From a virus, in IMG/VR virus record IMGVR_UViG_3300017613_000305: a stretch of DNA of 31,708 nt. One strand, written 5' to 3'. Below the pieces are notes generated by a model that searched no databases, was not told where the DNA came from, and saw nothing but the letters and a program-made list of their open reading frames with translations. How positions within the stretch are numbered: the first letter of the stretch is position 1; every line of letters starts with the position of its first letter. This document shows positions 3,337-31,708 of this stretch, piece after piece. The translations under genes were made by a program, and so were the position numbers.

Positions 3337-4758
3337 ATGGCAATAACACTTAAAGCAAAACCATTTGTAATATCACCAGCGTTCAACGAACTGCGTTTCA
3401 TATACGACAGCACGAATAAGAACAACACTGGATTCAAATATATCTTTGATATTTACGAAGCAGGAACAGCGACCAAGATAGCAGAGCGCAAGATATCACC
3501 ACAGTATTCAACAGGATATGGTGATCAAGATGTATCTAAGTTAATTCAAGGATTCTTGTCTGGTGATTTCACACCATCAAATTCGACGACATTCGACGCG
3601 ACGAAATCCTATTATAGTTATGATGTAAAGATCGGTGAAGAATATGTCGCCGAATATAATTATACATCTGCCTTAGTACAGAATGGTTCATACGTAAAGA
3701 TAACGGTCACACATGCCTTTGAAGTAGGTGATGCTGTTGTCATAGCACAAGATGATGGTGGAGCAGCCAACCCTGGTCTTGAAGGGCTGTTCGTTGTAAC
3801 GGCAATAAATGGAACGACAGACTTTACTATCAATTCGCTATGGTCAGAAGTAACGGACATAAACATTGATGGAACCGCAAAGTACAGCGATAATAGAAAG
3901 ACGATAACACGAGACATTACTACATCACTAGCAAACTTTGTCTTCAACGGTGCGTTTAGTTTCCTTAACTGGATAGCATACGACCAAGCACAATATGAAT
4001 TGACTGACTCGACGACGAAGATGTTAACCGACCTACCCGACGAATTCAGCATATTCGAAGGGCAAGACAATTGGGTGAACGTATTATCTGAAACAGACGC
4101 GACAAACTTCATGTACTTCGAAAACAGTACAGGCGATATATTTAAAAAGGCTATAACATCGGGTGGATTCATTGATCAGATTCTAGTCAGTGGTGAGGAC
4201 TTACAGGCAGGACTAACACTTGTCAGTGGTTCGGGTGATCTAGTTGAGGACGATGTGGAGTACTACCAGTTCTGGATGCAGACAAGTGCAACATTAGAAT
4301 TAACACAACGCTATCAATTCAATATAGATAAACGTTGCAAGATAAACGACTATCAACTGGCTTTCCGAGATCGTAAAGGTTCGATGTTGTCCTATGGTTT
4401 CCAATTGCACGATGTAGAAAGTGGAACGGTCAAACGAACGACATACAACAAGGAAGTGGTAGGTGCGATATCAAGCTCTAAATGGACATACGAAAGCCAT
4501 GAACGTGGAATGAAGCAGGTAGATATTACCAAGGACGAAACACTTACTTTAAGAAGTAACTATATCCGAACACAAGAAGACTTGGACTTGTTCGAACGCT
4601 TGGTAACTTCACCAGACGTATACATCAAGATCGGTGATGATTGGTTGGCTGTAACGGTACAGGATAATTCATACACTAATCCAAGACTAAGACAGAGCAG
4701 ATTACACAAGAAGGAAATCAAAGTCAAATTGGCAAATCAAGACATCATCAATGGCTAA
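3337..4758 (+). CDS. Virion structural protein (tail/baseplate-like, function unknown)
   Basis: 473-aa ORF that is beta-rich and N/T/S/D-rich. It is translationally coupled (8-nt overlap) to the 911-aa ORF. Confidence 0.45.
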   Translation: MAITLKAKPFVISPAFNELRFIYDSTNKNNTGFKYIFDIYEAGTATKIAERKISPQYSTGYGDQDVSKLIQGFLSGDFTPSNSTTFDATKSYYSYDVKIGEEYVAEYNYTSALVQNGSYVKITVTHAFEVGDAVVIAQDDGGAANPGLEGLFVVTAINGTTDFTINSLWSEVTDINIDGTAKYSDNRKTITRDITTSLANFVFNGAFSFLNWIAYDQAQYELTDSTTKMLTDLPDEFSIFEGQDNWVNVLSETDATNFMYFENSTGDIFKKAITSGGFIDQILVSGEDLQAGLTLVSGSGDLVEDDVEYYQFWMQTSATLELTQRYQFNIDKRCKINDYQLAFRDRKGSMLSYGFQLHDVESGTVKRTTYNKEVVGAISSSKWTYESHERGMKQVDITKDETLTLRSNYIRTQEDLDLFERLVTSPDVYIKIGDDWLAVTVQDNSYTNPRLRQSRLHKKEIKVKLANQDIING

Positions 4759-7486
4759 TAATACAACGGCATACATAAAGACTAGCAACGGCAACATCCA
4801 ACTAATTGAGGGTACAAGCTGTTCGTTGAATTTTGGTATAGCAGATATCCGTGATCTATCTAGTCGGGGTGGTACATTCTCGAAGCAATTGAATGCTGTG
4901 TGGAGTGATGAGAACCACAGGATACTTGGACAACTATTTGACATCAATGCAACAACGTTCGAATATAATTTCAATGAGCGTGTCGAATGTGAGGTGATAC
5001 AGAACGGTCTTGTGATAGTCTCGGATGCTTACTTGCAACTAATCGAGATAAACGAATCACAATCAACGAACGCACAACAAGCGAACGGTAGCTATTCAAT
5101 TCTTGTTAAGTCTGCACAACGCGACCTATTTGCCAAGATGGGATCAAAGGAATTAACGGACTTAGATTTCACATATCTCAATCACACCTATACAGCTGCA
5201 AACGTTGTTAGTTCATTTACGAACGACTACACCGATGGATATGTGTATCCGATGGGTATTAATGACACGGCAGACTTTTTGCTCACAGACTTTAGTCCAG
5301 CGATATATGTTAAACACTACTTCGACCAGATACATGCAACGAATGGATTTAGTTATGAAGTGCAAGATTGGGATGTGTTCGACAAACTCATTATACCATT
5401 CAACAATGATAAACCAGTAGTTGACAATACAGACTTTTTAGTTGAAGCGACGAAGAGTAGTTTTTCCAGTGGAGTGGGAGCGATAACAAACTGGACAGAG
5501 GTATCCGACAATGAAAGCCTATTCAATCCGACAACAGGAATATATGATGTACCTGTGTGCCTAACAGGTGGACAAGCGATAAATGCCAACATTGTAATTG
5601 ATTTCGACCTAGTACTAGATAATTCTTCTGGAGCAAATGCGTATCTAGTCGATATCCAAAACACTGCATATGATAGAAGTGTACGATACAAGGGATTCTT
5701 CCGAATACTAAAGAACGGAGTATTTTACATGGGTGGAAACTTTGTACCACCAACGAATGGAGGAACACAAGGACACGAATTCTTCGAAAGTGACACACCA
5801 GTATCAAATGGTGATACAATCATACTATCCGACAACAATACGATTAACGTACCAGCAGGAAACTTACTTCCAACGGATACGCTATCCTTTGAGATAATAG
5901 TCCAAGCACATGCAGGAAATGCACTCCCTGCGTTTATGAAGTGGAAGGATTCAGCACTATCAACTGCCAACGATGTAACGGTCACACCACGAATTGATAT
6001 AAACGATGTGACGATCAAATTAGAATTAACAGCCAATTCGATAGGGTACAACTCCGAACAGGATATGAACAACTATATACCGACGAAGATTAAACAAAAG
6101 AACTTCGTGAAATCGGTGTGTAACATGGCACAGTTAATGGCATATCCCGACCCCGACAATAGTAACAAAATAATATACCAACCTCGTGATGCATATTTAG
6201 ATGCAGGACAAGAAAAGGATTGGAGGGAAAAATTAATCAAGGACGAAAACCAATTGGTGCGGTTCTTACCGGAACTTGCTGCAAAGCGTAAAATCTTCAC
6301 GTACAAAGAAGATAAAGATGTGTACAACGTTTCCTATAAAGGAGCGACGAATGAGGTGTATGGTCAAGCTGAATTCATATTTGATACAGAGTTCAGACAA
6401 AACATTGAAACACTGGAGTTGGTTTTCTCACCTACACCAATGGCACAGATAGCAATCGGTGCGATAGTTCCAACATTCATTGGAGGTGCGCCAAATGTGA
6501 ACATTAGGATACTAATTCACAACGGTACGCAAGTATGTAATCAGTTCAATATATACGATTATGCATCAACAGGTTCGACAGGTGTCGTAGACTATCCGAT
6601 GGTAAGCCATTTCGATGATCATTACAATCCGACTGTTGACATCAATTTCGCTGTATGTGACTACTATTTCTATCAAGGCATAAACCTCACGAATAACAAC
6701 CTGTACAATTTACATTGGCGAAGAACAATGGCACAAATGAATAGTGGTAAGATGCTCACAGCCATGTTTGATTTGAGTGTTGCAGATATCGCCAATCTAA
6801 AGATGAACGATAAGGTGTACACAAAGAACGCTTGGTGGAACTTCAATAGGGTGATTGATTACAATGCTAATGGAAACCAAAACACGAAGGTTGAACTATT
6901 AAGCATCGACGACGAACTCGATCTACCTACAACCCGAAAAGCAGGACAACCAACTGACCTTCCTATTAGTACACCATCTGCACTTCCTTCTGGTTCGGAT
7001 AATCCAATCAAGGGATTACTAGAAGAACTATACACAGAAAACAACGTGAACCTATCCGATGGTGCTACAACGGTAAAAGGTACAGGTAATGTGATAGGGC
7101 AAAACGTTCGTGGATTCATCGTTGGTAACAACCAAATTATTGAAGAGTCGGGATATTGGATTAACGGTAAAAACATCGGTGATGGTTCGGACTTCTTCGA
7201 AGCGGTTGAATACTATTCTATCAATATTGATTCAGACTATACGGTTGACCCAACGGCACAAGCAGTGATTTATTTAACAGCAAGTGGCTTGACGATCACC
7301 TTACCAGACCCAGACGATTACACAGACACAAAGATATACATCAAGAACAAATCCACAGGATCAAACACAATAAGCGTTGAATTGGTTTCACCACCTGCAA
7401 CAATTGATGGAATGGCAACGGTGAAACTAAAGAAATTAGAATCATTAACACTTCATGCAAATGAAGGAATTTGGAGCATACTATGA
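4751..7486 (+). CDS. Large tail/baseplate or host-specificity protein
   Basis: 911 aa, the largest ORF in the genome, with N/T/S-rich beta-type composition. It lies between structural ORFs, with an ATGA overlap to the next gene. Confidence 0.5.
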   Translation: MANNTTAYIKTSNGNIQLIEGTSCSLNFGIADIRDLSSRGGTFSKQLNAVWSDENHRILGQLFDINATTFEYNFNERVECEVIQNGLVIVSDAYLQLIEINESQSTNAQQANGSYSILVKSAQRDLFAKMGSKELTDLDFTYLNHTYTAANVVSSFTNDYTDGYVYPMGINDTADFLLTDFSPAIYVKHYFDQIHATNGFSYEVQDWDVFDKLIIPFNNDKPVVDNTDFLVEATKSSFSSGVGAITNWTEVSDNESLFNPTTGIYDVPVCLTGGQAINANIVIDFDLVLDNSSGANAYLVDIQNTAYDRSVRYKGFFRILKNGVFYMGGNFVPPTNGGTQGHEFFESDTPVSNGDTIILSDNNTINVPAGNLLPTDTLSFEIIVQAHAGNALPAFMKWKDSALSTANDVTVTPRIDINDVTIKLELTANSIGYNSEQDMNNYIPTKIKQKNFVKSVCNMAQLMAYPDPDNSNKIIYQPRDAYLDAGQEKDWREKLIKDENQLVRFLPELAAKRKIFTYKEDKDVYNVSYKGATNEVYGQAEFIFDTEFRQNIETLELVFSPTPMAQIAIGAIVPTFIGGAPNVNIRILIHNGTQVCNQFNIYDYASTGSTGVVDYPMVSHFDDHYNPTVDINFAVCDYYFYQGINLTNNNLYNLHWRRTMAQMNSGKMLTAMFDLSVADIANLKMNDKVYTKNAWWNFNRVIDYNANGNQNTKVELLSIDDELDLPTTRKAGQPTDLPISTPSALPSGSDNPIKGLLEELYTENNVNLSDGATTVKGTGNVIGQNVRGFIVGNNQIIEESGYWINGKNIGDGSDFFEAVEYYSINIDSDYTVDPTAQAVIYLTASGLTITLPDPDDYTDTKIYIKNKSTGSNTISVELVSPPATIDGMATVKLKKLESLTLHANEGIWSIL

Positions 7487-8551: not shown

Positions 8552-10939
8552 ATGGCAAGTAAAAAGAAAATAATCAACGTTGAGATCAAACCAGAATTAT
8601 CTGGGATAAGAAATCTAAACAACGAAATATCCAAGATGCGTTCAGAGTTGGACGAAGCGACAGATGCAAAGCATATTGACAAGCTCAACAAAGAACTCGG
8701 CAAGACCGAGAAGCAAGTTGTGGATATCAACGAAGCAGTTAAGAAGGTTGGTATCGGTAAGAAGTTCGAAGACGCATTTGATGACCTTGCACCACTATCT
8801 TCACGACTCGGTGAACTTGAAGATCAAATGTATGAATTAGCATTTGCAGGAAAAGCCGATAGTGAAGCCTTTCGTGAATTACAACAGGAGGCGGTGAAGA
8901 TGCGCCAAACCATTATCGAGACTGATAAGCAAGTGGACATCCTAGCAGACAACAAAGGCATGTCAGTCTTTAGTGATGGTATTGGACAAGTCGGTGCATC
9001 AATGGCACGTTTGGACTTTGAGACAGCAAGTAAACAAGCGACAAGTTTAGCAGGTGCAGCTGGAAAGATTTCTTTTGGTTCAGCAATGAAATCAATGAAG
9101 CAATTTGGTAGTACGATTATGCAACTAGGAAAAGCGATCTTAATGAATCCGTTGTTTTTACTTGCAGCCGTTATTGCAGCCGTTGGATATGCAGTATATA
9201 AACTGCTCGATGCGCTTGGTGTGATCAAGGTAATATTTGAAGCAGTAGGAAAAGCCATTGGATGGGTTGTGCAACAACTTAAAAACTTCTTGGATTGGTT
9301 GGGCTTAACGAACTATGCAGAACAAGACGCAGCGGAAAAGAGCGCGAAGTCTGCCGAACGTAGAGCGAAAGCATACGAGACAGCAAGTAAACGAATCACA
9401 CAAGCACTGGACACTGAAATCAAGTTAGCAGAACTTGCTGGTGAATCTACCGAAGCACTAGAAAAGAAGAAGCTGGAAGTTACAGAAGCGACAACAGAAA
9501 AACAGGTTGAAGCATTACGTGCAAGATTCAAAGCCGAAAAGATAAAGCAGGAAATGACACACGAGGAAATGGTCGAACTGCGCCAACAACTAGAGGAAAA
9601 GAAACTACTCCACAAGAAGAGTATCGACGATTTAAAGATATTCGGAGCAGAAGAAGCAGCCGAACGTCGTGATGCGATCATAAGAGACAAGAAAGCCAAA
9701 GCAGAACTAGCAGGTGATACGATTAAAGCACAGACGATCCAATTAAAAAAGGAGCGTGATCTAGCACTAAGAAATGAGAAGTTAACACAGAACGAGATTT
9801 TACTCATAAAGAAACAATTCAATGACGAGGTTGCAGAACTCGAAGAGGCAGACAGAGCAGAACGATATGCAAAGTGGAAAGCATGGAAGGACAACCGTGT
9901 GAGTACTGAACGTTTGATCCAAGACATTGAAACGGATTTATTGGAAGATGGTATCGACAAGGAACTCCAAGCGAACAATTACAAATTCGACAGGTTAATT
10001 GAAGACACCAAGCGTGATGAAACGATAAACCAAAAGGAGCGATTAAGATTAGTCGAACTATATGGTAAACAACGAACAGAAGCAGAAGCACAACTACGTG
10101 AGAAGAACCGACTAGCAGAAGCAGATGCGAAACTAAAGGAGAAAGAACAAGCACAAACCGACCTTGATAAATTGACAGCATGGTACGCTAAAAAGGACGC
10201 ACTGGAACGTTCGTTGATACAAGACCAATACGAAAAGGAAAAAGCAGAACGTACAGCACAATTCGAAGACCGTATAGCAACACTCGAAGCAGAAGGATTG
10301 CTAACCAATGCGATTGAGTTGAAAATAAAAAAGAAGTTGCAGAACGATCTGGACGCGATAGACAAGAAAGCGAACGACGAAAAGAAAGCAGCGGATGCGA
10401 AATCAATTGCAGACGCGAAATCATTAAGTGAAGCCAAGGCAAACATGGCAGTACAAGGATTGCAACTTGTTGCTAGTGTAGCAGAGTTATTTGCAGATAA
10501 GAGTGAAACGGCTGCGCGTGTTGCGTTCAATGTCCAAAAGGCTGCAAGTATAGCACAGGCAACAATGGATGGATATAAGGCTGTGATAAGTACATACGCG
10601 AATGCACCTGGTGGAGTTGTATTAAAGGGTATTCAAGCAGGTATAGCTGGAGCGTTCGCAGCTGTTCAGATTGCTAACATAGCCAAAACAAAATTCGAAG
10701 GTGGTGGAGCAGGTGCAAGTGGTGTTGCATCGGCAGGTTCATCTGCTGTTGGTGGTGGTGGCGCACAACAAGCACAAACACCAAACTTGGAATTGTTCGG
10801 ACAAGCGAATAACTTAAATACATTTTTCCAACCCGAAGGACAGGAACAAGGACAAACGGTACAGGCTGTTATATCATTAGATCAGTTAAGTACGTCACAG
10901 GACAAAGCGTCACAAATATTTGAAAGCGGTCTATTGTGA
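8552..10939 (+). CDS. Tape-measure-like protein (or internal/ejection protein)
   Basis: 795 aa. It has a hydrophobic segment (NPLFLLAAVIAAVGYAVYKLL), about 400 aa of K/E/A coiled coil, and a Gly-rich C-terminus (GGGAGASGVASAGSSAVGGGG). Confidence 0.6.
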   Translation: MASKKKIINVEIKPELSGIRNLNNEISKMRSELDEATDAKHIDKLNKELGKTEKQVVDINEAVKKVGIGKKFEDAFDDLAPLSSRLGELEDQMYELAFAGKADSEAFRELQQEAVKMRQTIIETDKQVDILADNKGMSVFSDGIGQVGASMARLDFETASKQATSLAGAAGKISFGSAMKSMKQFGSTIMQLGKAILMNPLFLLAAVIAAVGYAVYKLLDALGVIKVIFEAVGKAIGWVVQQLKNFLDWLGLTNYAEQDAAEKSAKSAERRAKAYETASKRITQALDTEIKLAELAGESTEALEKKKLEVTEATTEKQVEALRARFKAEKIKQEMTHEEMVELRQQLEEKKLLHKKSIDDLKIFGAEEAAERRDAIIRDKKAKAELAGDTIKAQTIQLKKERDLALRNEKLTQNEILLIKKQFNDEVAELEEADRAERYAKWKAWKDNRVSTERLIQDIETDLLEDGIDKELQANNYKFDRLIEDTKRDETINQKERLRLVELYGKQRTEAEAQLREKNRLAEADAKLKEKEQAQTDLDKLTAWYAKKDALERSLIQDQYEKEKAERTAQFEDRIATLEAEGLLTNAIELKIKKKLQNDLDAIDKKANDEKKAADAKSIADAKSLSEAKANMAVQGLQLVASVAELFADKSETAARVAFNVQKAASIAQATMDGYKAVISTYANAPGGVVLKGIQAGIAGAFAAVQIANIAKTKFEGGGAGASGVASAGSSAVGGGGAQQAQTPNLELFGQANNLNTFFQPEGQEQGQTVQAVISLDQLSTSQDKASQIFESGLL

Positions 10940-11271: not shown

Positions 11272-11648
11272 TGGCATTTAAAACACCTTCCAGCATAGAT
11301 AGAGACTTCACCCGAAAGTTCAAAGCAGATATACGTAAAAAGGATTTGATTGACACATGGGCGTTGTATAAGTCGATAGATGTAACAGCAGAAATTGATT
11401 TGAATTTCGGTACGTTCATGAGTGCAAACTATACATTCAGCGTACAAGTATATGCAGAACCTTATTTGGTGTATTTGGACGAACGGTTCCAAGTAACCAA
11501 CGATTTCATTAATAGTCGATCATTTAGAAATACCACCGATAAGTTCCGTTTGTTTTTTACTGCATATTTGCAGAATGAATATCCTTTGCTTAGATTTGAT
11601 AATGTGACGCTTGAATTAAGCACGATCACATTAATGAATCAACCATGA
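11271..11648 (+). CDS. Hypothetical virion-associated protein
   Basis: 125 aa, coupled by TAATG to the upstream gene and ATGA to the downstream gene. Confidence 0.5.
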   Translation: MAFKTPSSIDRDFTRKFKADIRKKDLIDTWALYKSIDVTAEIDLNFGTFMSANYTFSVQVYAEPYLVYLDERFQVTNDFINSRSFRNTTDKFRLFFTAYLQNEYPLLRFDNVTLELSTITLMNQP

Positions 11649-11998
11649 AAATAATACTATTTATATTCCTTTCACTAGGAGCTACGGCACAAGAAACCAA
11701 GATACATGGCTTTCCAGAATTCGCAACGGTAACACGTTACATTGAACACAATGATACAAGTTATGTTCTAACATTCAAGGATCAACAATACAGCTTACTT
11801 GATATCCACGAAAGCGTAATCATTGACCCTACGCAAGTACTCAACAACTGTAACAAAGTACTTGAAACAGGTGAACCGATAAAGACATCCGAATACACCA
11901 TATACAAAGTCGGTAAGAAAGGGTTGTCTTTTTACGTTGGGAATAGTTACTTTTATCCAACACTTAGATTTTTTCAAAAGACATGCGACAAAAGGTAA
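11645..11998 (+). CDS. Secreted protein (signal peptide)
   Basis: The N-terminus MKIILFIFLSLGATAQE is a typical Sec signal with an A-x-A cleavage site. 117 aa. Confidence 0.6.
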   Translation: MKIILFIFLSLGATAQETKIHGFPEFATVTRYIEHNDTSYVLTFKDQQYSLLDIHESVIIDPTQVLNNCNKVLETGEPIKTSEYTIYKVGKKGLSFYVGNSYFYPTLRFFQKTCDKR

Positions 11999-12591
11999 GT
12001 ATCATAATACCCTATGACATTGATCGTGGATGGTTGAACGAAGCTATTGAATCAGTCAACGCACAAACATATCCAAACATTGAGTTGATTATCTCACAAT
12101 CAGACAAGGGTGTAAGCTACAATCTAAACGATGGTATCATGAAAGCCACAGGAACTTATGTCAAGTATCTATGTGAAGACGACAAACTCACACCGCGATC
12201 TATCGAACTATCGGTACAAGCAATGAAAGGAAACGACCTTATCCACGGTAATAGTTTAATACTAGGACACACTGGTAAATTAAGTTTGTTCGTACCACTC
12301 GACAAACACCCAACACTCACACAAATGATTCACAACAACCGAATACATGGTGGAACATTAATGTATCGCCGTGATGTGTTTGAACGTTTCGGATACTTTG
12401 ATGAATCATTGTGGACAGGTGAAGAGTATGATTTCAATATGATGCTACTATCCAAGGGTGCGAAGTTAGGATATTGCGGTGCAGCCTTATATGTTTACCG
12501 ACGACACGAACAACAAAAGAGTCTTGGACGTAAAGCCAACCAAACGAAAAGAAAACAAGCGATCAAGGAAATTAGACAACGATATGTATAA
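11983..12591 (+). CDS. Family 2 glycosyltransferase (GT-A)
   Basis: VSIIIPYDIDRGWLNEAIESVNAQTYPNIELII followed by NDGIMKATGTYVKYLCEDDKL shows the classic GT2 N-terminal and DxD signatures. Confidence 0.8.
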   Translation: MRQKVSIIIPYDIDRGWLNEAIESVNAQTYPNIELIISQSDKGVSYNLNDGIMKATGTYVKYLCEDDKLTPRSIELSVQAMKGNDLIHGNSLILGHTGKLSLFVPLDKHPTLTQMIHNNRIHGGTLMYRRDVFERFGYFDESLWTGEEYDFNMMLLSKGAKLGYCGAALYVYRRHEQQKSLGRKANQTKRKQAIKEIRQRYV

Positions 12592-13228
12592 ACACTTTAT
12601 ATTCTGCCGTTACAACTTAGAGCTATTCAATAGCAACCCATACAAGGTGTCTAATCCTGACCAATGGATGGTTGAGCGCATACCGATGTTTAGACGACTT
12701 CTAAGATCACTTAAATACCAAACGAACAAAGACTATACTTTCGTCGTGGGAATGGACAAGAATACACCGCGTGAGCATTTATACATGGTAGCGAAAACAC
12801 TGGAGGAATTCGATATCAATTATGTTGTTGTGTTTGGTGATCCACGTACACACATTGCAGAACAATCTGAATTCGTCGAGTGGATTATAACAAGTCGTAT
12901 TGACAACGATGATGAATATAGACCAGAGTTTGTTGAAGCGATACAAAGCAACTTCCAAGAAAAGACAGAACTGTTGGATGTGATCGGAGTGCAACACGAT
13001 GGTAAACGATTTTATACATCTGGACGACCAACACCAAACAGTCCATTTATTACATTGATTGAAAAGTGGGATAAACCCAAAACTGTATTGCATAGACCAC
13101 ACTCGATCATGAACGGTGAGTATCTTGCAAGGTACGCAAGTCTCGACCCTTTGACGATTCAACACATACACACATCGAACGCAGCGAATAGAATAATAGG
13201 CAAACCAATCAACCCGATATGGAAATAG
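12584..13228 (+). CDS. Glycosyltransferase, putative rhamnosyltransferase-like
   Basis: ATG 12584 overlaps the upstream stop by 8 nt; the track ORF starts earlier, inside the GT2 gene. The FIFCRYNL start and the TSRIDNDDEY motif resemble the Rhamno_transf family (T.RLD.DD). Confidence 0.55.
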   Translation: MYKHFIFCRYNLELFNSNPYKVSNPDQWMVERIPMFRRLLRSLKYQTNKDYTFVVGMDKNTPREHLYMVAKTLEEFDINYVVVFGDPRTHIAEQSEFVEWIITSRIDNDDEYRPEFVEAIQSNFQEKTELLDVIGVQHDGKRFYTSGRPTPNSPFITLIEKWDKPKTVLHRPHSIMNGEYLARYASLDPLTIQHIHTSNAANRIIGKPINPIWK

Positions 13229-13866
13229 TAGTAGCAATCGCAACAATGCCTGGTCGTGAGAAGTTCCTAGCAAAGACAATCAAATCACTGGCAGGACAAT
13301 GTGATCAACTACGGATATATGACAATGGTGTCCGTGATGTTGATTTAACCGACAATGGAAAGTTTTATTTTCTAAAGGAATACACCGAACCAGTTTATTA
13401 TCTGACTTGTGACGACGATATCATATACCCACCTAATTACGTGAAGGACATGGTGAAAGCCATAGACCGCACAGAGGGAATAGTAACACATCACGGTCGC
13501 ATACTCACAAGGAAAAACGTATCATACTATCGTGGAAGACACAAGACGTTCAGATGCAACGGATGGGTGAATAGAGAAAAACAAATCCACGTTGGTGGTT
13601 CTGGTGTAATGGGTTGGCGCACTGATCAATTTAATCCTGTTGAGATTTACGCAAGTGAAAACAAACGAATGTCTGATCTAGTCGTGGCACTTAAAGCTGC
13701 ACAAAGCGGTGTCAAGATTACCGTACTAGAACACCCTGTGAACTATGTGATAGTGCAACCTGTACCAAACGAACAAACCATATTTGGAGCAGATAGACAC
13801 GAGGATACTATTCAGTCACAGATTGCGAACGAGGTTTTACAGATTCTGACAAAGCGAACCAATTAA
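13219..13866 (+). CDS. Glycosyltransferase (GT-A-like, DDD motif)
   Basis: IVVAIATMPGREKFLAKTIKSLAGQ plus YYLTCDDDIIYPPNYV form a GT-A nucleotide-sugar binding pattern. Confidence 0.55.
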   Translation: MEIVVAIATMPGREKFLAKTIKSLAGQCDQLRIYDNGVRDVDLTDNGKFYFLKEYTEPVYYLTCDDDIIYPPNYVKDMVKAIDRTEGIVTHHGRILTRKNVSYYRGRHKTFRCNGWVNREKQIHVGGSGVMGWRTDQFNPVEIYASENKRMSDLVVALKAAQSGVKITVLEHPVNYVIVQPVPNEQTIFGADRHEDTIQSQIANEVLQILTKRTN

Positions 13867-14482
13867 AAACTAGGATGTGTGGCAATCCCATCACATGGCT
13901 ATATTTAGTGAGATCACCCTTTGTAATCACAAATATAGTACGCATCCATGCCGTTGCTGGATCAACCTTAACCACCTCTTCGTCTTCTTCATACTCTTCG
14001 TCTTCCTCACCTGAATCAAATAGATTAGGATATTTCTTGAATACGTCTGCACGATATTGGGTGTAATTCTCGACCGCACGATATACGTCTGTGATTTTCT
14101 TGTCGTATACATCTTCACCAAGACCGTACAACAATTGCGCGACCTTTGGCAATGCATCGACAAAACTATTGGACACTAGGATAACATCGAGATCAATAAA
14201 CAACGCAATGGATAGCTTGTTGAATGGCTTTAACCCTTCGTCCTTTAGTGTGCATGATATAGGTTTCGCAATAAACGAAATGCACTTCTTTACCTTCCTC
14301 AACTCACGGTCTGTGATATCTTCGTCCAAATCCAAGAACACATCACCGACTTCTAATATGAATTCTGTCGGTGTTATGTCCTTGTTGGAGATTAGTTCTT
14401 GCAACTCCATGAATTGTTCCACAGAGCAGTCTGACCAGTTAAGCGGTTTCTGTTCCATCTTTGGATTCGTCAGTGGATTCAT
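13808..14482 (-). CDS. Acidic hypothetical protein (second gene of the minus-strand cassette)
   Basis: Long minus-strand ORF with normal composition, whereas the plus-strand alternatives are Ser-rich junk. Candidate ATGs are at 14482 and 14458; the track start 14494 is TTG. It has an acidic run, SGEEDEEYEEDEE. Confidence 0.6.
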   Translation of the reverse strand: MNPLTNPKMEQKPLNWSDCSVEQFMELQELISNKDITPTEFILEVGDVFLDLDEDITDRELRKVKKCISFIAKPISCTLKDEGLKPFNKLSIALFIDLDVILVSNSFVDALPKVAQLLYGLGEDVYDKKITDVYRAVENYTQYRADVFKKYPNLFDSGEEDEEYEEDEEVVKVDPATAWMRTIFVITKGDLTKYSHVMGLPHILVFNWFALSESVKPRSQSVTE

Positions 14483-15014
14483 TAAGCTCTGCAAGTTGTC
14501 TACGCATCACACGAACCATGAATGGTGCAGCTACATCAGACTTCAATTGCTTTCTGAATAGTTCTGCTTTGTGCTTGATATGATTCCAATCACGGTGTTC
14601 GGTGTTTGTTAAATCCACATCTTTGAATAAGATAGCAACCACCCAACTAGGGAAATGTCCATCATACTTTAATTGTGCCTGTTCGATTAACGATATATCC
14701 CTCGCTTTGAATTCGAATTCCACACCCTCGAATGATTTGTAAGTCCTACCGTTCACAACAATTTCATCTGGAACGTCCTTTGGTAGTTCGTAGTCATTAA
14801 ACGAACGCACCGTGTCAAGGAATTCTTTTTGGTTTAAACTATCCAGTACATCGTTGGGTACTTTCAACATTTCGAAAACTTCGAAATACTTACTTACTAC
14901 ATCGTTGCCTTGTCTGTTTACTATCGAAAAAATAGTATCGAACTCATTCAACGTCAATTCATCGGGGGCGTTTCTAAGTTCGTAAACTTTGTCACCATAA
15001 TTAATTTCTAACAT
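14439..15014 (-). CDS. Acidic hypothetical protein (first gene of the minus-strand cassette; TAC-like N-terminus)
   Basis: Start MLEINYGDKVYELRN at ATG 15014, downstream of a minus-strand TAnnTTTG box. The longer track ORF (to 15143) would begin upstream of that promoter and overlap gene 15061. Confidence 0.6.
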   Translation of the reverse strand: MLEINYGDKVYELRNAPDELTLNEFDTIFSIVNRQGNDVVSKYFEVFEMLKVPNDVLDSLNQKEFLDTVRSFNDYELPKDVPDEIVVNGRTYKSFEGVEFEFKARDISLIEQAQLKYDGHFPSWVVAILFKDVDLTNTEHRDWNHIKHKAELFRKQLKSDVAAPFMVRVMRRQLAELNESTDESKDGTETA

Positions 15015-15041
15015 ATACAATTCTTTTACAACAAAAATACA

Positions 15042-15049
15042 CAAATTTA
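15042..15049 (-). promoter_or_regulatory. Bacteroidetes-type -7 box TAAATTTG on the minus strand
   Basis: Plus strand reads CAAATTTA at 15042-15049, 27 nt upstream of the minus-strand ATG 15014. Confidence 0.5.
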
Positions 15050-15060
15050 CTATACGGATA

Positions 15061-16146
15061 ATGTTACCAGAATACACATTATCTATCGACCCATCATTAG
15101 CCGAAAACGGTGAAGAGTTGGGTATCTTTGAAATAGCGAACACCGCGACCCCTGCAATTATGTTGAAGGGTGTTGCATTCTCTAGTCAAGAAACGAAAGC
15201 GATCTACTTTGCAGATAACAAAAAATACAGGATTGCAGCTCCAGTTGTAACGCCTGGTAAGATATACCGCAAAGACCCCGAAACAGAAGAAGAATACTAC
15301 GCGAAAGTGACACCCGAATATATCGAAAGTGTATATGTTGACTTCATGGCAAAACGAATAGGTGGTGAAGTATTCAACGAGGAACACAACGAAAAGGTTA
15401 AACCACCATCATACATATTGGAAACATGGTTAGTGGAAAACCCAAAGACCGACAAAGCACAAACAGTTTATGGTCTTGATGTTCCAAAGGGTACATGGTT
15501 CGCGGTTCAACAATTCACGGATAAAGAAGTTTATAATGATTACGTCGAACGTGGTCTCACAGGTTTTTCAATACATGGACATTCAGCAATGTTGTTGATG
15601 TCCGAACAAAACAAAACAGAAATGGAAAAGGAAGAAAACAAAGAAGTTGAAGCAATGGAAACAATGCAAGACGGTGCGAAGTTCATGATAGGCGATAAGT
15701 ACTATGAAGTGAAAGACGGCGTACCAGTTGAAGTTGTTGAGGTTGTCGAAGAAACTGAAATGGCAGAAGACGACAAAACCGAAGAAACGGAAATGAACGA
15801 AGAAGAGTCTAAGACAGATGAAACTGAAATGATGGACGAATCAGAGGAAAAGGAAACAGAGTTAGCAGAAGAGGAAACAAAGGAAACGGAAATGGCTGAC
15901 GAAGAGGGAACAGAAGAGACTGAAATGGCAGACGATGCAACTGGTGAGTACTACTCGAAGGAAGAGGTGGACGCTAAGTTCAGCGAAGTGTTTGACATGT
16001 TAGCAGACTTGAAAAAAGAAGAAGAAACAACAGAGGAAGTTGAAGATGTACCAAGTGTACAGATGTCAAAACAGCCAAAGAGTAGAGTGCAAAACATGCG
16101 CGAAAAACTGGATAAATTCGGAACGTTTAGCCCGAACAACAAATAA
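15061..16146 (+). CDS. XkdF-like prohead protease fused to an acidic scaffold-like domain
   Basis: The N-terminal roughly 185 aa (VTPEYIESVYVDFMAKR..NEEHN...ETWLVE...GTWFAVQQFTDKEVYNDYVERGLTGFSIHG) fits the XkdF/S78_2 pattern. The C-terminus is E/T/M-rich with ETEM repeats. It lies directly upstream of the MCP. Confidence 0.65.
   Translation: MLPEYTLSIDPSLAENGEELGIFEIANTATPAIMLKGVAFSSQETKAIYFADNKKYRIAAPVVTPGKIYRKDPETEEEYYAKVTPEYIESVYVDFMAKRIGGEVFNEEHNEKVKPPSYILETWLVENPKTDKAQTVYGLDVPKGTWFAVQQFTDKEVYNDYVERGLTGFSIHGHSAMLLMSEQNKTEMEKEENKEVEAMETMQDGAKFMIGDKYYEVKDGVPVEVVEVVEETEMAEDDKTEETEMNEEESKTDETEMMDESEEKETELAEEETKETEMADEEGTEETEMADDATGEYYSKEEVDAKFSEVFDMLADLKKEEETTEEVEDVPSVQMSKQPKSRVQNMREKLDKFGTFSPNNK
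15751..15927 (+). repeat. Tandem in-frame repeats of about 33 nt (core GAAAC[TG]GAAATG, encoding ETEM)
   Basis: Cores at 15751, 15784, 15820, 15853 (an ETEL variant), 15883 and 15916, spaced 30-36 nt apart. Confidence 0.85.
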
Positions 16147-16172
16147 AATAACAACAATAAAACAAAGCAAAA

Positions 16173-17150
16173 ATGGCAACAAGAGAATTAAGAATGTCAA
16201 TGAATGTAGCTACGGATGCGCTTTTAGAAGTGAATCCAAAAGAGTTCTACACACAAGCGTTGTTAGAAAACCGTTCATCGGCTTACTTTCGACAAGTATT
16301 AAACATTAAAGAAAAAACAAAGATCGGTTCTTTGTCTTTCGGTACATTGCTTTTTCCAGCAGACTGTGCTTACCAAGGAGGTGATAGCACACTAGGAGCA
16401 AAGGAAATGGAACCATGTAAAATCCAAATCGGTACGGACTTATGTATGTACGAAATGGAAACTTCTTTCTTAGCGGATTGGATGAACGCAGGATCAAACG
16501 GTGATTGGATGCCAGCGGAGTATGCAACATTCATGTTTGGTGAGTTATCGCGTGAAGTGTCTGACCTTTTAGAGGTTCTAACATGGCAAGGTGATACTGA
16601 TGTAACATTTGACGAAGAAGACCCAGCTACGTTCATCGGATTATGTGATGGATTAGAGAAGCAACTATGTGGTGCAAACATACCAGCAGCTCAAAGGGTG
16701 TCAGGAACATCGATAACTTCAACGAATGTTATTGCAGAAATGACAAAAGTATACAACGCTATCCCAACGAAGGTGAAACAAAACAAGGCAGATGTATCTT
16801 GGTTCGTATCACAAAACGTTGCAGATGCGTACGTGTTAGCAGTTGCGTTGCAATCGGCAGAGGTGTACACTAGAGACAATCCAGAATTAACTTTCTTAGG
16901 ATACAAGTTGATGGTTGGTGCAGGAATGTCTGACAATGTGATGACACTTTCGAAAGCAAACAACTATGTATTCCTTGCGGATTTAGTTAGCGACCCAGAA
17001 GATTTGAATGTGATTGATTTGTCTAAAACGACAGGCGACAAAACAATCCGTGTTCGTTCTGACTTCAAAGTTGGATTTAACTACTTGAATGATACAGATG
17101 GACCAGGTGATAACGAATGGGTTACTTACGGATTATCTTGCGCATCATAA
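16173..17150 (+). CDS. Major capsid protein (HK97-fold type)
   Basis: 325 aa immediately after the protease/scaffold gene and followed by a strong terminator. Size and position are typical. Confidence 0.75.
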   Translation: MATRELRMSMNVATDALLEVNPKEFYTQALLENRSSAYFRQVLNIKEKTKIGSLSFGTLLFPADCAYQGGDSTLGAKEMEPCKIQIGTDLCMYEMETSFLADWMNAGSNGDWMPAEYATFMFGELSREVSDLLEVLTWQGDTDVTFDEEDPATFIGLCDGLEKQLCGANIPAAQRVSGTSITSTNVIAEMTKVYNAIPTKVKQNKADVSWFVSQNVADAYVLAVALQSAEVYTRDNPELTFLGYKLMVGAGMSDNVMTLSKANNYVFLADLVSDPEDLNVIDLSKTTGDKTIRVRSDFKVGFNYLNDTDGPGDNEWVTYGLSCAS

Positions 17151-22378: not shown

Positions 22379-22867
22379 ATGTTATTAGAGTTAAAACGAT
22401 TCGTTGATGATGGTGATACAACAGGCGGTGCATTGTTCATTAATGGTGTATTTGAATGTTTTATTGTAGAGGACCAGGAGCAAACAAAAAAAGTGTGGGG
22501 TGAAATGCGTGTACCATGTGGAATGTATGATATCACATTTCGAACGGTTGGTGGATTTCACAACCGCTATACAAATAAGTTTGGTTCGATGCATAAGGGT
22601 ATGTTGCAACTAACAAACTGCACACCAACATCTGCATCAAAAATAGTTGTTGGTGATATTCATTTTAAGTATGTATTGATCCACATAGGTAATACGGATG
22701 ATGACACGGCAGGGTGTTTGTTGCCAAACGAAACATTGAACAGTACATCAATGCGTGGTGCAGGATCAACGAACGCTTACAAACGTATGTATCCAAAGGT
22801 TGCCAAAGCAGTTGAAGCAGGTGACAAAGTACGCATACACATCACCGATATTGAAACAGGAATATAA
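22379..22867 (+). CDS. DUF5675-like protein, candidate endolysin
   Basis: Start ATG 22379, 1 nt after the holin stop. MLLELKRF..GDTTGGALFINGVFECFIVED ... VLIHIGNTDDDTAGCLLP matches the DUF5675 pattern (L.R...TG.L..NG.F.C...E ... ILIH.GN...DT.GCI). Confidence 0.55.
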   Translation: MLLELKRFVDDGDTTGGALFINGVFECFIVEDQEQTKKVWGEMRVPCGMYDITFRTVGGFHNRYTNKFGSMHKGMLQLTNCTPTSASKIVVGDIHFKYVLIHIGNTDDDTAGCLLPNETLNSTSMRGAGSTNAYKRMYPKVAKAVEAGDKVRIHITDIETGI

Positions 22868-22881
22868 ACACCAACATAATT

Positions 22882-23211
22882 ATGGAAAACAAAGGAGTAA
22901 ACGCACTGACAATTTTTGTGCAGGAAGGATTTGAACTAATCCACGAAATCAAGGAAAGCAAAAACGACGATGGTAAGATCAGACTATTCGAATGGATCGG
23001 TATAGTAAAAGAATCAACCGATGTATTGAATGCAGTGAGGGATTTAAAGGGCATTGACTTGTCGGATGCAACGGATAGTGATATCGCGAACCTTGCAAAC
23101 TTAATAATGGACAGCATCCAACGTGAAGTGAAATTCACTAGAAACGATGTAATTGATTTATTGAACATTGCAAAGTCTGTTGTATCAATAACGACACGCA
23201 AACGAAAATAA
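22882..23211 (+). CDS. Hypothetical protein (last gene of the late region)
   Basis: 109-aa ORF followed by the terminator hub. Confidence 0.55.
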   Translation: MENKGVNALTIFVQEGFELIHEIKESKNDDGKIRLFEWIGIVKESTDVLNAVRDLKGIDLSDATDSDIANLANLIMDSIQREVKFTRNDVIDLLNIAKSVVSITTRKRK

Positions 23212-23272
23212 TTTGTATATTGCGCCCTTTAGTGGTTCATTCTACATTTTTTTAAAGTTTAGGTAAAAGAAA

Positions 23273-23299
23273 GGGTAGTCCGTGAGGTCGCCCTTTTTT
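23273..23299 (+). terminator. Rho-independent terminator T1
   Basis: Imperfect stem GGGTAGTCC/GGTCGCCC around a GTGA tetraloop, then T6. The 3' arm plus T-tract is nearly identical to the terminator at 17779-17792. Confidence 0.55.
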
Positions 23300-23301
23300 A
23301 G

Positions 23302-23309
23302 TATATTTG
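23302..23309 (+). promoter_or_regulatory. -7 box TATATTTG with no ORF downstream before the next terminator
   Basis: Exact TAnnTTTG 2 nt after T1. The next terminator is about 65 nt downstream. Confidence 0.45.
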
Positions 23310-23329
23310 TTTTAACAATATTGAAAAGT

Positions 23330-23350
23330 GGTTGACTGAAACGGTTGACT
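23330..23350 (+). repeat. Direct repeat GGTTGACT x2 (13-nt period); a related GGTTCATT sits at 23234-23241
   Basis: GGTTGACT at 23330-23337 and 23343-23350. Confidence 0.8.
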
Positions 23351-23371
23351 TATGTATGTCATAACAATAAA

Positions 23372-23401
23372 GGGTAGATGTTCGTAGCACTACCCTTTTT
23401 T
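23372..23401 (+). terminator. Rho-independent terminator T2
   Basis: GGGTAG(23372-23377)/CTACCC(23390-23395), then T6. Confidence 0.6.
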
Positions 23402-23428
23402 AATGCCCTATAAATAATATTATAATAA

Positions 23429-23436
23429 TATATTTG
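23429..23436 (+). promoter_or_regulatory. Early promoter -7 box TATATTTG
   Basis: Exact TAnnTTTG in an AT-rich context shared with 29890-29897 (AATAATATATTTGTATAT). Confidence 0.55.
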
Positions 23437-23455
23437 TATATGCCATTATTATGAT

Positions 23456-23463
23456 TAGATTTG
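23456..23463 (+). promoter_or_regulatory. Early promoter -7 box TAGATTTG plus conserved leader AACTTTAAAACAATAACAG-ATG
   Basis: Exact TAnnTTTG 23 nt before ATG 23487. The leader is nearly identical to the one at 29909-29930. Confidence 0.55.
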
Positions 23464-23486
23464 TATAAACTTTAAAACAATAACAG

Positions 23487-23666
23487 ATGGACAACACTAA
23501 CAAATTGCTGGATGCATTTTTCAATCGTTGTAAGAACGAAACACAAGAAGACAATGTATACACACCACCCGAAGGATTAAACGGTCTTAAAATAGCGCAT
23601 ACAACGATGCCTGACAAACCGTATGGATTCAATGAGGTATTCGAAAACACAATCAAATCAAAGTAA
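23487..23666 (+). CDS. Small hypothetical protein (59 aa, below the track cutoff)
   Basis: ATG 23487 follows the conserved promoter/leader cassette. The frame is open to TAA 23664-23666, 2 nt before the next ATG. Product: MDNTNKLLDAFFNRCKNETQEDNVYTPPEGLNGLKIAHTTMPDKPYGFNEVFENTIKSK. Confidence 0.5.
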   Translation: MDNTNKLLDAFFNRCKNETQEDNVYTPPEGLNGLKIAHTTMPDKPYGFNEVFENTIKSK

Positions 23667-23668
23667 CT

Positions 23669-24004
23669 ATGAATAAATTAAATTCTCGCGTAGTATTAAC
23701 GCACGACGACCCGATAGAAATAACTTCACGAAGTAAGATAATAGACATTCGTGCAGACTACGGAAACAACGAAACAGAAGTGATTGCATGTGTATATCAT
23801 GAGTCAGACCAGGCAGCTTTGTCGATTGCCAAACATATTTGTATGATCCCAGACATGGTAGGTGCATTGGAATTATTCAAACAGATGCAGAACCATCAAG
23901 CGTTGGATGTTGCCGATTTGAGAATGTTATCGGCTAAGTATATCGACAAGATGAATTCAATCAATAAAACATTGTACGATGGGGAAGACAACACCAGCGC
24001 ATAA
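23669..24004 (+). CDS. Hypothetical early protein
   Basis: 111-aa ORF. Confidence 0.6.
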   Translation: MNKLNSRVVLTHDDPIEITSRSKIIDIRADYGNNETEVIACVYHESDQAALSIAKHICMIPDMVGALELFKQMQNHQALDVADLRMLSAKYIDKMNSINKTLYDGEDNTSA

Positions 24005-27154: not shown

Positions 27155-27162
27155 TATATTTG
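27155..27162 (+). promoter_or_regulatory. Early promoter -7 box TATATTTG with the AACTTTAAAA leader
   Basis: Exact TAnnTTTG. TTG at 27132-27134 is a possible -33 element. TAATATATT direct repeats at 27125 and 27141. The leader AACTTTAAAAG sits at 27166-27176. Confidence 0.55.
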
Positions 27163-27187: not shown

Positions 27188-27460
27188 ATGAACAAGGCAT
27201 CACAGGCAGATATCAAATTCTATAAGGGTGTGTTGTTGGTGAAAATCCACGACAAACTGACATCAGACAAAACATACATGAGTATCGACGAACTTGATAC
27301 GTTCTTAAAGTCATACGCAGATTTGAATGAACTATCATGTGGTGAAATGACACACGAACAGATGCAGATACTAAAAGAATATTCGAAGCAATTTGCATCT
27401 AGCATTGGAATGGGTGTTGATGCATTCGACAAAGACAACGAAATCAATTTTAATTTTTAA
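27188..27460 (+). CDS. Hypothetical protein
   Basis: 90-aa ORF after the promoter cassette. Confidence 0.6.
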   Translation: MNKASQADIKFYKGVLLVKIHDKLTSDKTYMSIDELDTFLKSYADLNELSCGEMTHEQMQILKEYSKQFASSIGMGVDAFDKDNEINFNF

Positions 27461-31346: not shown

Positions 31347-31708
31347 ATGAAAGCAATTTTAAAAGAATTAGGATTTGAACACTTGCCGATGCTTAGTGAG
31401 TTTTGGAAGAAATTGAGAAACCATAAAGAGGGATTCGAACCTTCATATATCACAATAGAGTATAATTCATTTGTAGAGTTTGTTACTCAACCCCTCACAA
31501 AAGGAATGTTTATACCTTGTGATGAAGCGGGAAATGTATTGGAAAAATCTTTGGCGTGTTTAAATGGCGATAATTGCCCTATTTGCGAACAATACCAACA
31601 AGCAAAGGATAGAGTATTGTTTGAGGGGTGGGAGGGTAAATCATACTGTGATTACCTTGTGATTAATGACAATCAAACAATAAGAATTAATGATGATTGT
31701 ATTTATGT
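31347..31708 (+). CDS. Hypothetical protein, N-terminal part (continues into 1..200 via the repeat)
   Basis: ATG 31347, open to the window end and in phase with the ORF ending at 200. It contains CPICEQ. Confidence 0.7.
   Translation, partial: MKAILKELGFEHLPMLSEFWKKLRNHKEGFEPSYITIEYNSFVEFVTQPLTKGMFIPCDEAGNVLEKSLACLNGDNCPICEQYQQAKDRVLFEGWEGKSYCDYLVINDNQTIRINDDCIY
31588..31708. repeat. Right copy of the 121-bp exact direct terminal repeat
   Basis: Identical to 1..121. It could be a circular-assembly overlap or a true DTR. Confidence 0.95.

Follow-up and report, generated by a model that had tools for sequence, protein, structure and literature searches.

The IMG/VR virus record IMGVR_UViG_3300017613_000305, a stretch of 31,708 nucleotides (nt) which was analysed at its full length and is here called the window, carries two overlapping open reading frames (ORFs) on its minus strand, ORF1 and ORF2, lying between its tail and head genes. 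Both are real genes, and as a pair they belong to the conserved core of a large group of uncultured Flavobacteriia phages. The feature itself is confirmed as real and conserved, and it is largely explained: the best explanation, to which a probability of roughly 55% is given, is that the pair is the two-gene, relocated and inverted form of a chaperone-like gene whose short (S) and long (L) products would be made in sister phages by -1 recoding of a single gene.

Features and conservation of the ORF1/ORF2 pair

The pair has the following features, with lengths in amino acids (aa) where these apply.

14439..15014, minus strand: ORF1, 191 aa, putative short form (S), with an ATG start, an N-terminal domain and a short tail of its own
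13808..14458, minus strand: ORF2, 216 aa, putative long form (L), its ATG placed at 14458 by homologues and gene callers
14069..14458, minus strand: N-terminal domain of ORF2, about residues 1-130, paralogous to that of ORF1 but diverged from it
13808..14068, minus strand: L-specific C-terminal part of ORF2 (about residues 131-216), matching the -1 frame peptide of the sister phages
13976..14014, minus strand: acidic linker SGEEDEEYEEDEE (ORF2 residues 149-161), variable and predicted to be disordered
14439..14458, minus strand: ORF1/ORF2 overlap of 20 nt, A-rich, with the ORF2 ATG inside the ORF1 3′ end and in the +1 frame
13808..13866, convergent: overlap of 59 nt between the 3′ end of ORF2 and that of a plus-strand glycosyltransferase gene (13219-13866)
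15032..15039, minus strand: -7 box TAnnTTTG TATTTTTG, 17 nt before the ORF1 ATG, conserved
15042..15049, minus strand: second exact TAnnTTTG box TAAATTTG, not kept in relatives

The pair was followed through 88 loci (seven metagenomic contigs, 80 IMG/VR contigs and the window), 72 of which are distinct. An ORF1 homologue is directly followed by an ORF2 homologue on the same strand in every one of the 88, and no other clear opposite-strand unit is present among up to 25 neighbouring genes. In the loci with flanks that were read (L001-L007), the pair occupies the slot that follows the tail module and precedes the protease/scaffold gene. The homologues reach down to 25-50% identity, and profile searches indicate that both families are large, that of ORF1 having 356 clusters at 50% identity (from 1.84 billion representatives) and that of ORF2 having more than 468 proteins, mostly of 260 aa, on contigs of about 29-35 kb. 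As the pair is found in one slot in all 88 loci, it is a core unit rather than an accessory moron.

The way in which the two genes overlap is also well kept. In all 72 distinct loci ORF2 is shifted by +1 against the frame of ORF1, with an overlap of 11-71 nt (most commonly 41) in 71 of them and a gap in the remaining one; its start codon is ATG in 69 of the 72, and the 20 nt before this start are 52% A. At the 3′ end of ORF2, the convergent overlap measures 21-68 nt in relatives. The first-pass annotation of this DNA, made from the sequence without database searches, had correctly placed ORF1 at 15014 to 14439, the end of the ORF2 frame at 13808, the opening of that frame (+1 relative to ORF1) at 14506 and the run of 59 nt into the convergent gene. 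It had however put the start of ORF2 at 14482, giving an overlap of 44 nt, for which homologues and gene callers favour the ATG at 14458 and an overlap of 20 nt.

A constant +1 frame with an overlap in nearly all loci could suggest that ORF1 and ORF2 are fused by a programmed +1 frameshift somewhere within the 20-68 nt over which the ORF2 frame is open. The same constancy is expected from an inherited overlap alone, and ORF2 has a conserved ATG of its own in an A-rich initiation context. Since ORF2 also has a complete N-terminal domain, which such a fusion would hold twice, and since in many relatives its frame stays open for no more than 0-12 nt ahead of the ATG, a +1 fusion is neither needed nor likely and is regarded as very improbable.

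The two proteins are paralogues over their N-terminal parts. Comparison of the two families with hhalign shows that about 120 N-terminal residues are homologous (probability 93.5%, E 2.3e-7, 118 columns), the common domain having diverged to about 10-20% identity. There is also a weak signal for an internal duplication within the N-terminal domain of ORF1 (hhalign E 4e-4, probability 35%). AlphaFold gives confident models of both ORF1 (pLDDT 86, pTM 0.81) and ORF2 (pLDDT 85, pTM 0.79). With Foldseek neither model has anything in the PDB below E 0.8, the folds of tail assembly chaperones (TACs) and of Ocr and ArdA included. Searches of Pfam and PHROGs gave no match for either protein, PDB sequence profiles gave noise only, and Foldseek against BFVD, a collection of predicted viral protein structures, returned only 'uncharacterized' matches, with chaperone-annotated entries at E values of at least 0.5. 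Among 50,697 GenBank phage records there was no DNA or protein match to the region, to either ORF, to the capsid protein or to a distant ORF2 homologue.

A single recoded gene in the sister phages

The evidence on what the pair represents comes from the cultured Nonlabens (Persicivirga) phage P12024S (JQ823122, locus L008), and in particular its genes 38 and 39, which make up an S/L region at 23136-23830. Gene 38 was found by ORF1 both in sequence (hmmsearch E 1.2e-5) and in structure (Foldseek to I6R9M9, E 1.4e-6). It immediately follows TerL and shares its strand with the rest of the genome. The P12024S record has the two genes as separate hypothetical proteins with no frameshift marked, and they belong to phrog_32199 and phrog_38404 respectively, both of 'unknown function'. 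The -1 frame of gene 38 opens at 23571, shortly before a run of nine T residues (T9, 23578-23586) which, in the frame of gene 38, gives T TTT TTT at 23579, and it then runs on through the 55-aa gene 39 to 23830. From this arrangement, genes 38 and 39 look like one -1 recoded gene.

Relatives of gene 38 were identified at 63 IMG/VR loci, with identities of 25-99%, and the gene is complete in 59 of these. All 59 have the T9 run (T10 in one) followed by ATCATTTAGG, a site which reads FFYHLGNDL in the 0 frame and FFLSFR(E/Q/K)RL in the -1 frame. The short form in these sister phages is 167-248 aa long and the fused long form 231-269 aa. Over 39 distinct sequences with a median pairwise identity of 59%, the 28 nt around the T-run have a per-column identity of 98%, compared with 70-72% in the flanks, which is the pattern expected of a dual-coding recoding signal. 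Runs of nine or more A or T are also suited to transcriptional slippage; the T9 run would thus suit this mechanism and ribosomal -1 slippage alike.

Profile comparisons connect both products of this gene to the window pair. The alignment of the fused L forms with the ORF2 family spans 239 columns, through the slip site and on to the C-terminus (hhalign 99.5%, E 2.3e-23), while the alignment of the sister S forms with the ORF1 family (96.7%, E 4e-10) stops at the position of the slip site. The S forms also match the N-terminal part of the ORF2 family (96.8%, E 2.5e-10), and the two N-termini, that of ORF2 and that of the sister-phage protein, align from residue 1-4 onwards. A hidden Markov model (HMM) built from the -1 extensions alone matches only ORF2 among 516 six-frame segments of the window (E 1.3e-7, the next being 0.68), and ORF2 has the motif of the L-specific domain (FxSFRxRL...Y..LF, linker, KWGWY...GDI...). 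On the basis of these profile alignments, ORF1 would be the short form and ORF2 the long form, an equivalence which is considered highly probable.

The slip site itself is not found in the window. ORF1 lacks a slippery heptamer, a T-run and a -1 ORF, also in the region homologous to the T9 site, and in place of the T9-ATCATTTAGG site the two-gene arrangement is present in all 88 loci of the clade. The first-pass annotation had likened the N-terminus of ORF1 to TACs and the overlapping pair to a G/GT frameshift pair; of this, the link to a frameshift pair stands, in that the pair is homologous to a sister gene with a -1 slip site, but similarity to known TACs was not found. It had also raised three objections to its own comparison, namely the orientation, the distance from the tape measure gene and the +1 frame without a slippery heptamer. 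All three are correct as facts, and they are explained if the long form has come to be encoded separately, starting at an ATG of its own and carrying a second copy of the N-terminal domain.

The following course of events would account for these observations. ORF1 and ORF2 would be the S and L forms of one morphogenetic protein, encoded as tandem overlapping paralogous genes. In the sister lineages, normal translation would give S and a -1 shift at the T9 run would give L, which would consist of the N-terminal domain of S and a C-terminal domain of about 85 residues. In the clade of the window, L would have turned into a gene of its own (ORF2) with a diverged copy of the N-terminal domain, its ATG having arisen within the 3′ end of ORF1, where the surroundings are rich in A, and the ratio of S to L would be set by translation initiation or coupling instead of recoding. 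The unit would have been relocated to the junction of the tail and head modules, inverted, and placed under its own host-type promoter of the Bacteroidota kind.

The order of genes around the sister S/L gene is TerL, the S/L gene, two small neck-like genes and then large tail proteins, all on one strand. The S/L gene overlaps TerL, with which it is co-directional, and this indicates that it is co-transcribed with the late genes; it lies several genes away from the tape measure gene.

A few further observations concern the sister phages and a more distant relative. One subgroup of the recoded lineage (most of the loci L122-L150, for example L123 at 5992-6761) has an S of 248 aa and an L of 256 aa, so that about 100 codons are read in two frames, both of them conserved. 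In locus L128 the TerL-like ORF (3834-5798) is 654 aa long compared with about 386 aa elsewhere, which could be due to an insertion (possibly an intein or homing element) or to a fusion with the upstream gene. Flavobacterium phage 6H (KC959568, locus L152) has, in the minus-strand region 10044-10927, a weak homologue of the short form, 191 aa in length (HMM E 0.002-0.005; Foldseek E 0.02). The unannotated gap of 300 nt after it holds a -1 frame ORF resembling the L-specific domain. The family of this homologue, phrog_25418, has a profile of 293 positions, suggesting that in relatives a single ORF encodes the long form. Immediately before the tape measure-like gene of 6H (1198 aa) there is a gap of 418 nt, in which no coding-strand ORF of at least 35 aa was found.

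Promoter and transcription of the pair

The consensus of promoters recognized by the Bacteroidota sigma-A factor is TTTG at -33 and TAnnTTTG at -7. A TAnnTTTG box is present 14-18 nt before the ORF1 ATG in 71 of the 72 distinct loci, even where the proteins of the relatives share only about 25% identity; loci that were first listed with a 'TTG start' were re-anchored for this count, as that TTG belongs to the box. An exact box at 15042-15049 had been proposed in the first-pass annotation as part of a host-type promoter of the pair. This box does exist and a host-type promoter is supported by conservation, but the conserved box is the neighbouring one at 15032-15039. In the window alone TAnnTTTG occurs 45 times against an expectation of 34.6 ± 6.2, which is not significant, and it is therefore the conservation of the box that carries the evidence for a promoter. 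The site resembles a Bacteroidota sigma-A promoter in having the exact -7 box and, after it, a short leader that is rich in A and lacks a Shine-Dalgarno sequence, but differs from it in having no clear -33 TTTG at the expected spacing (about 19-21 nt upstream). As predicted from the box at 15032-15039, transcription would start near 15025-15027 and the leader would be about 12 nt long.

ORF1 and the protease/scaffold gene are divergent, with 46 nt between their starts. In this interval, between the protease/scaffold start codon and the ORF1 box, there is a conserved CCTATATTA-like element 3-6 nt from that start codon. It is found in the window at 15049-15057 (minus strand CCGTATAGT) and at equivalent positions in L009-L088. 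It might serve the head operon, as a late promoter or in the initiation of translation, or else act as an upstream element in the ORF1 promoter. No TAnnTTTG box was found just upstream of the head genes at 15061, and the late operons thus presumably use another signal. Exact boxes on the plus strand lie at 23302-23309, 23429-23436, 23456-23463 and 27155-27162; the first three cluster in the largest intergenic region (23.2-23.67 kb) and the fourth is upstream of the gene at 27188. These boxes near 23.3-23.5 kb and at 27155 are probably host-type early promoters.

The orientation of ORF1 and ORF2 is head-on against the end of the tail operon. This, together with the promoter, raises the alternative that the pair encodes early regulators or host-takeover proteins expressed from a host promoter, for instance an RNA-polymerase-binding switch for the late genes. 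The -7 box is conserved and of host type, the flanking late genes have no TAnnTTTG upstream, head-on transcription between two late operons could act as a timing device, and the corresponding slot of P12024S holds ten small minus-strand genes of early type. However, the sister S/L gene overlaps TerL and is thus transcribed along with late genes, Pfam and PHROGs revealed neither a DNA-binding domain nor one of a known regulator, and known phage transcription factors do not come in recoded short and long forms, so that such a role appears quite unlikely. A related proposal is that the S/L family is a new class of recoded protein other than a tape measure chaperone, and that the antisense slot with its host-type promoter between the tail and head operons is a transcriptional-interference timer which couples early transcription by the host polymerase to the start of late gene expression. 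This proposal is considered unlikely.

The pair had also been put forward in the first-pass annotation as an early-expressed moron, such as an anti-restriction or anti-defence pair of DNA mimics resembling Ocr or ArdA. The proteins are indeed acidic, with isoelectric points (pI) of 4.76 (ORF1) and 4.53 (ORF2), ORF2 does have the poly-Glu/Asp run that had been pointed out, and the pair has its own host-type promoter. Strong acidity is however not distinctive in this phage, most of whose proteins have a pI of 4.0-5.5, and the acidic run lies in the disordered, variable linker, residues 151-158 having a pLDDT below 50 in the AlphaFold model and differing among homologues. A moron would not be expected as a core pair in one slot of 88 loci, nor as a homologue of a recoded gene in a late operon; the confident models have no fold match among PDB structures, Ocr and ArdA included; and of the usual moron signals the promoter box is present but no terminator-like site was found anywhere in 12500-16500, including between the convergent genes. 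A DNA-mimic moron is accordingly considered highly improbable. An invertible segment of the Mu G-segment type was rejected as well, because no inverted repeats flank the pair.

A candidate role in tail assembly

Short and long forms that share an N-terminus and arise by -1 recoding have been described mainly for TACs. The window encodes a tape measure protein of 795 aa, and no other candidate for its chaperone was found. Taken together, the short/long recoding signature, the presence of a true tape measure protein and the lack of another chaperone candidate make a TAC-like job the most likely one for the pair, at about even odds. In such a role, the N-terminal domains of the two proteins would coat the tape measure protein and the L-specific domain would recruit the tail tube. 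What the comparisons above show directly is that the pair, the slip site and the promoter box are conserved, that ORF1 and ORF2 are paralogues and that ORF2 is homologous to the -1 fused product; it is the chaperone function, together with the timing of expression and the setting of the S-to-L ratio, that we infer from them.

The shared N-terminus with a long form reached by -1 recoding is given as the hallmark of the lambda gpG/gpGT TACs in articles citing the original work (Xu, Hendrix and Duda 2004, Mol Cell 16:11, cited in PMC10274946, PMC12859696). Short and long chaperone forms encoded as separate genes are likewise attributed to T4-like phages in a citing article (Vladimirov, Gautam and Davidson 2022, Virology 566:9, cited in PMC10274946), and poly-T slip motifs in related chaperone genes are mentioned in another (PMC12846349).

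Several points weigh against a chaperone. The pair is encoded on the opposite strand from the tape measure gene and 2.9 kb downstream of it, not between the tail tube and tape measure genes as is usual for a TAC gene, and a programmed -1 frameshift is absent from the window, being present at the sequence level in the sister-phage homologue. No TAC family appears among the Pfam and PHROG matches of 101 ORF1-family members, in the case of Pfam even to E 5, and these matches do not agree on any other family, while 54 members of the ORF2 family have no PHROG match at all. With Foldseek, the HK97 chaperone 2ob9 (2ob9_B) gives E 6.2 and a TM-score of 0.19-0.28. Comparison with lambda G, HK97 gp13 and P2 E by hhalign gives probabilities below 1%, and hmmsearch against lambda G/T, HK97 gp13 and P2 E gives nothing significant, both being weak tests with single-sequence targets. 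The host-type promoter, which is probably early or constitutive, is unexpected for a late assembly factor. Recoding by -1 frameshift also occurs in some capsid and tail tube genes and so is not specific to chaperones. Lastly, both the recoding in P12024S and the expression of the pair are predicted from sequence. With regard to the missing similarity, the known TAC families are themselves mutually very divergent, and its absence therefore only lowers the case for membership.

The same evidence bears on a further alternative, in which the S/L pair would be a morphogenetic or packaging accessory, such as a neck, head-completion or terminase-associated factor, instead of a tape measure chaperone. 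This would fit the position of the sister gene, which adjoins TerL and precedes Neck1-like genes and is not next to the tape measure gene, as well as the divergent arrangement of the window pair with the protease/scaffold and capsid genes and the lack of detected similarity to known TACs. On the other hand, the other recoded phage proteins that could serve as examples (capsid, tail tube) are beta-rich structural proteins, while ORF1 and ORF2 are acidic and helical, and a tape measure protein of 795 aa needs a chaperone for which there is no other candidate. An accessory role is thus a possible but doubtful alternative to the TAC-like one.

Genome context

The two ends of the window are identical (nt 1-121 and 31588-31708), which indicates a complete genome, circularly closed or terminally redundant, of about 31.6 kb. 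Its main genes other than the pair are as follows.

1628, plus strand: TerS
2114, plus strand: TerL
after TerL and before the tape measure gene, plus strand: three large beta-rich proteins
8552..10939, plus strand: tape measure protein, 795 aa (PHROG 9483, E 4e-12), putative client of ORF1/ORF2
between the tape measure and glycosyltransferase genes, plus strand: Neck1-like protein, 111 aa
11983..13866, plus strand: three glycosyltransferase genes, the last at 13219-13866
15061..16146, plus strand: XkdF-type prohead protease/scaffold (Pfam PF14550, E 2.5e-9; phrog_24921), divergent from ORF1
16173, plus strand: capsid protein
18156, plus strand: portal
beyond the portal, plus strand: DUF6712, lysis and replication genes (DnaB 25509, NinG 29210)

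The tape measure protein is rich in coiled coil, with a hydrophobic segment and a glycine-rich C-terminus. The genes just upstream of it encode beta-rich, Gly/Thr-rich and fibre-like products, none of which is chaperone-like.

All sizeable genes of the window apart from ORF1 and ORF2 are on the plus strand, and both the GC and the AT skew reverse sign over 14001-15000. The description of the pair as the only minus-strand cassette thus holds for genes of some size, although there are two small minus-strand ORFs with TTG starts, at 22842-23201 (119 aa) and 23420-23656 (78 aa), which overlap plus-strand ORFs of similar size (22882-23211 and 23487-23666). No homologues of either frame were found at these two places, where antisense 'shadow' conservation makes homology uninformative on the coding strand.

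The three glycosyltransferase-like genes at 11983-13866, which stand at the end of the tail module, are GT2-like, rhamnosyltransferase-like and GT2/GT21-like, and relatives have two or three glycosyltransferase-like genes, or a methyltransferase, at the equivalent place. The products of the trio may glycosylate the virion or modify the host surface. A protein of 117 aa with a signal-peptide-like N-terminus (MKIILFIFLSLGATAQ) is encoded at 11645-11998, and in phage 6H the gene for a protein of 184 aa with a signal peptide lies just before the tape measure gene; both could be morons within the tail module whose products are secreted or are lipoproteins. On the other side of the pair, the C-terminal half of the protease/scaffold has six imperfect acidic repeats (15633-15939) at a spacing of 33-36 nt (...E-ETEMA-D/E...). 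In P12024S there are ten small minus-strand genes, among them a DNA methyltransferase, at 32360-35572, between the tape measure and the protease/scaffold genes, and the slot between these genes seems to have accommodated a transcription unit on the opposite strand for a long time.

The host of the window phage is probably a member of the Flavobacteriales, given the Bacteroidota-type promoter, the growth of the nearest cultured relative on Nonlabens, the presence of one homologue on a contig binned as Crocinitomicaceae and the placing of the two Persicivirga phages in a large 'group 1' of putative Flavobacteriaceae phages (Nishimura et al. 2017, PMC5332604).

Implications

The comparison gives an indication of what two large families of hypothetical proteins may do, both of them core to abundant marine and freshwater Flavobacteriia phages. 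It also brings out an unannotated and very strongly conserved candidate -1 recoding site (T9), which is present in the cultured phage P12024S and can be tested there directly. The two clades would amount to a natural experiment in which the same S/L pair is made either by recoding or from two overlapping genes, a contrast that bears on why the tail-chaperone frameshift is so widely kept and on how the ratio can otherwise be set. For annotation, a note of caution is that a chaperone-like pair may be encoded at a distance from the tape measure gene and on the other strand.

Comparison with known systems

Like the lambda gpG/gpGT system, the pair consists of two acidic, largely helical products with a common N-terminal domain, the longer having an extra C-terminal domain; the sister phages would reach the long form by a -1 shift, in their case on a U-rich slippery run, and a tape measure protein is encoded in the window genome. 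Unlike in lambda, the window has one gene for each product, ORF2 starting at its own ATG in the +1 frame, and the two genes lie on the opposite strand with a promoter of their own, away from the tube and tape measure genes.

With the T4-like TACs the pair shares the encoding of short and long forms by two genes, a likeness of gene arrangement alone as given in the citing literature. Those phages are of a different lineage, being large myoviruses of Proteobacteria, and the citing articles, as far as they deal with these genes, do not mention an inversion or a separate host-type promoter.

The closest counterpart is the sister gene itself. P12024S and the uncultured 'group 1' relatives resemble the window phage in having a genome of about 30-36 kb with XkdF-type protease/scaffold, portal, TerL and tape measure genes, 'group 1' being a large group of putative Flavobacteriaceae phages that includes the two Persicivirga phages (Nishimura et al. 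2017, PMC5332604). Gene 38 of P12024S is the counterpart of ORF1 and of the ORF2 N-terminal domain, and the -1 extension, gene 39 included, corresponds to the C-terminal part of ORF2. The two systems differ in that P12024S would have one recoded gene, located after TerL and on the same strand as everything else, whereas the clade of the window has two genes, relocated and inverted.

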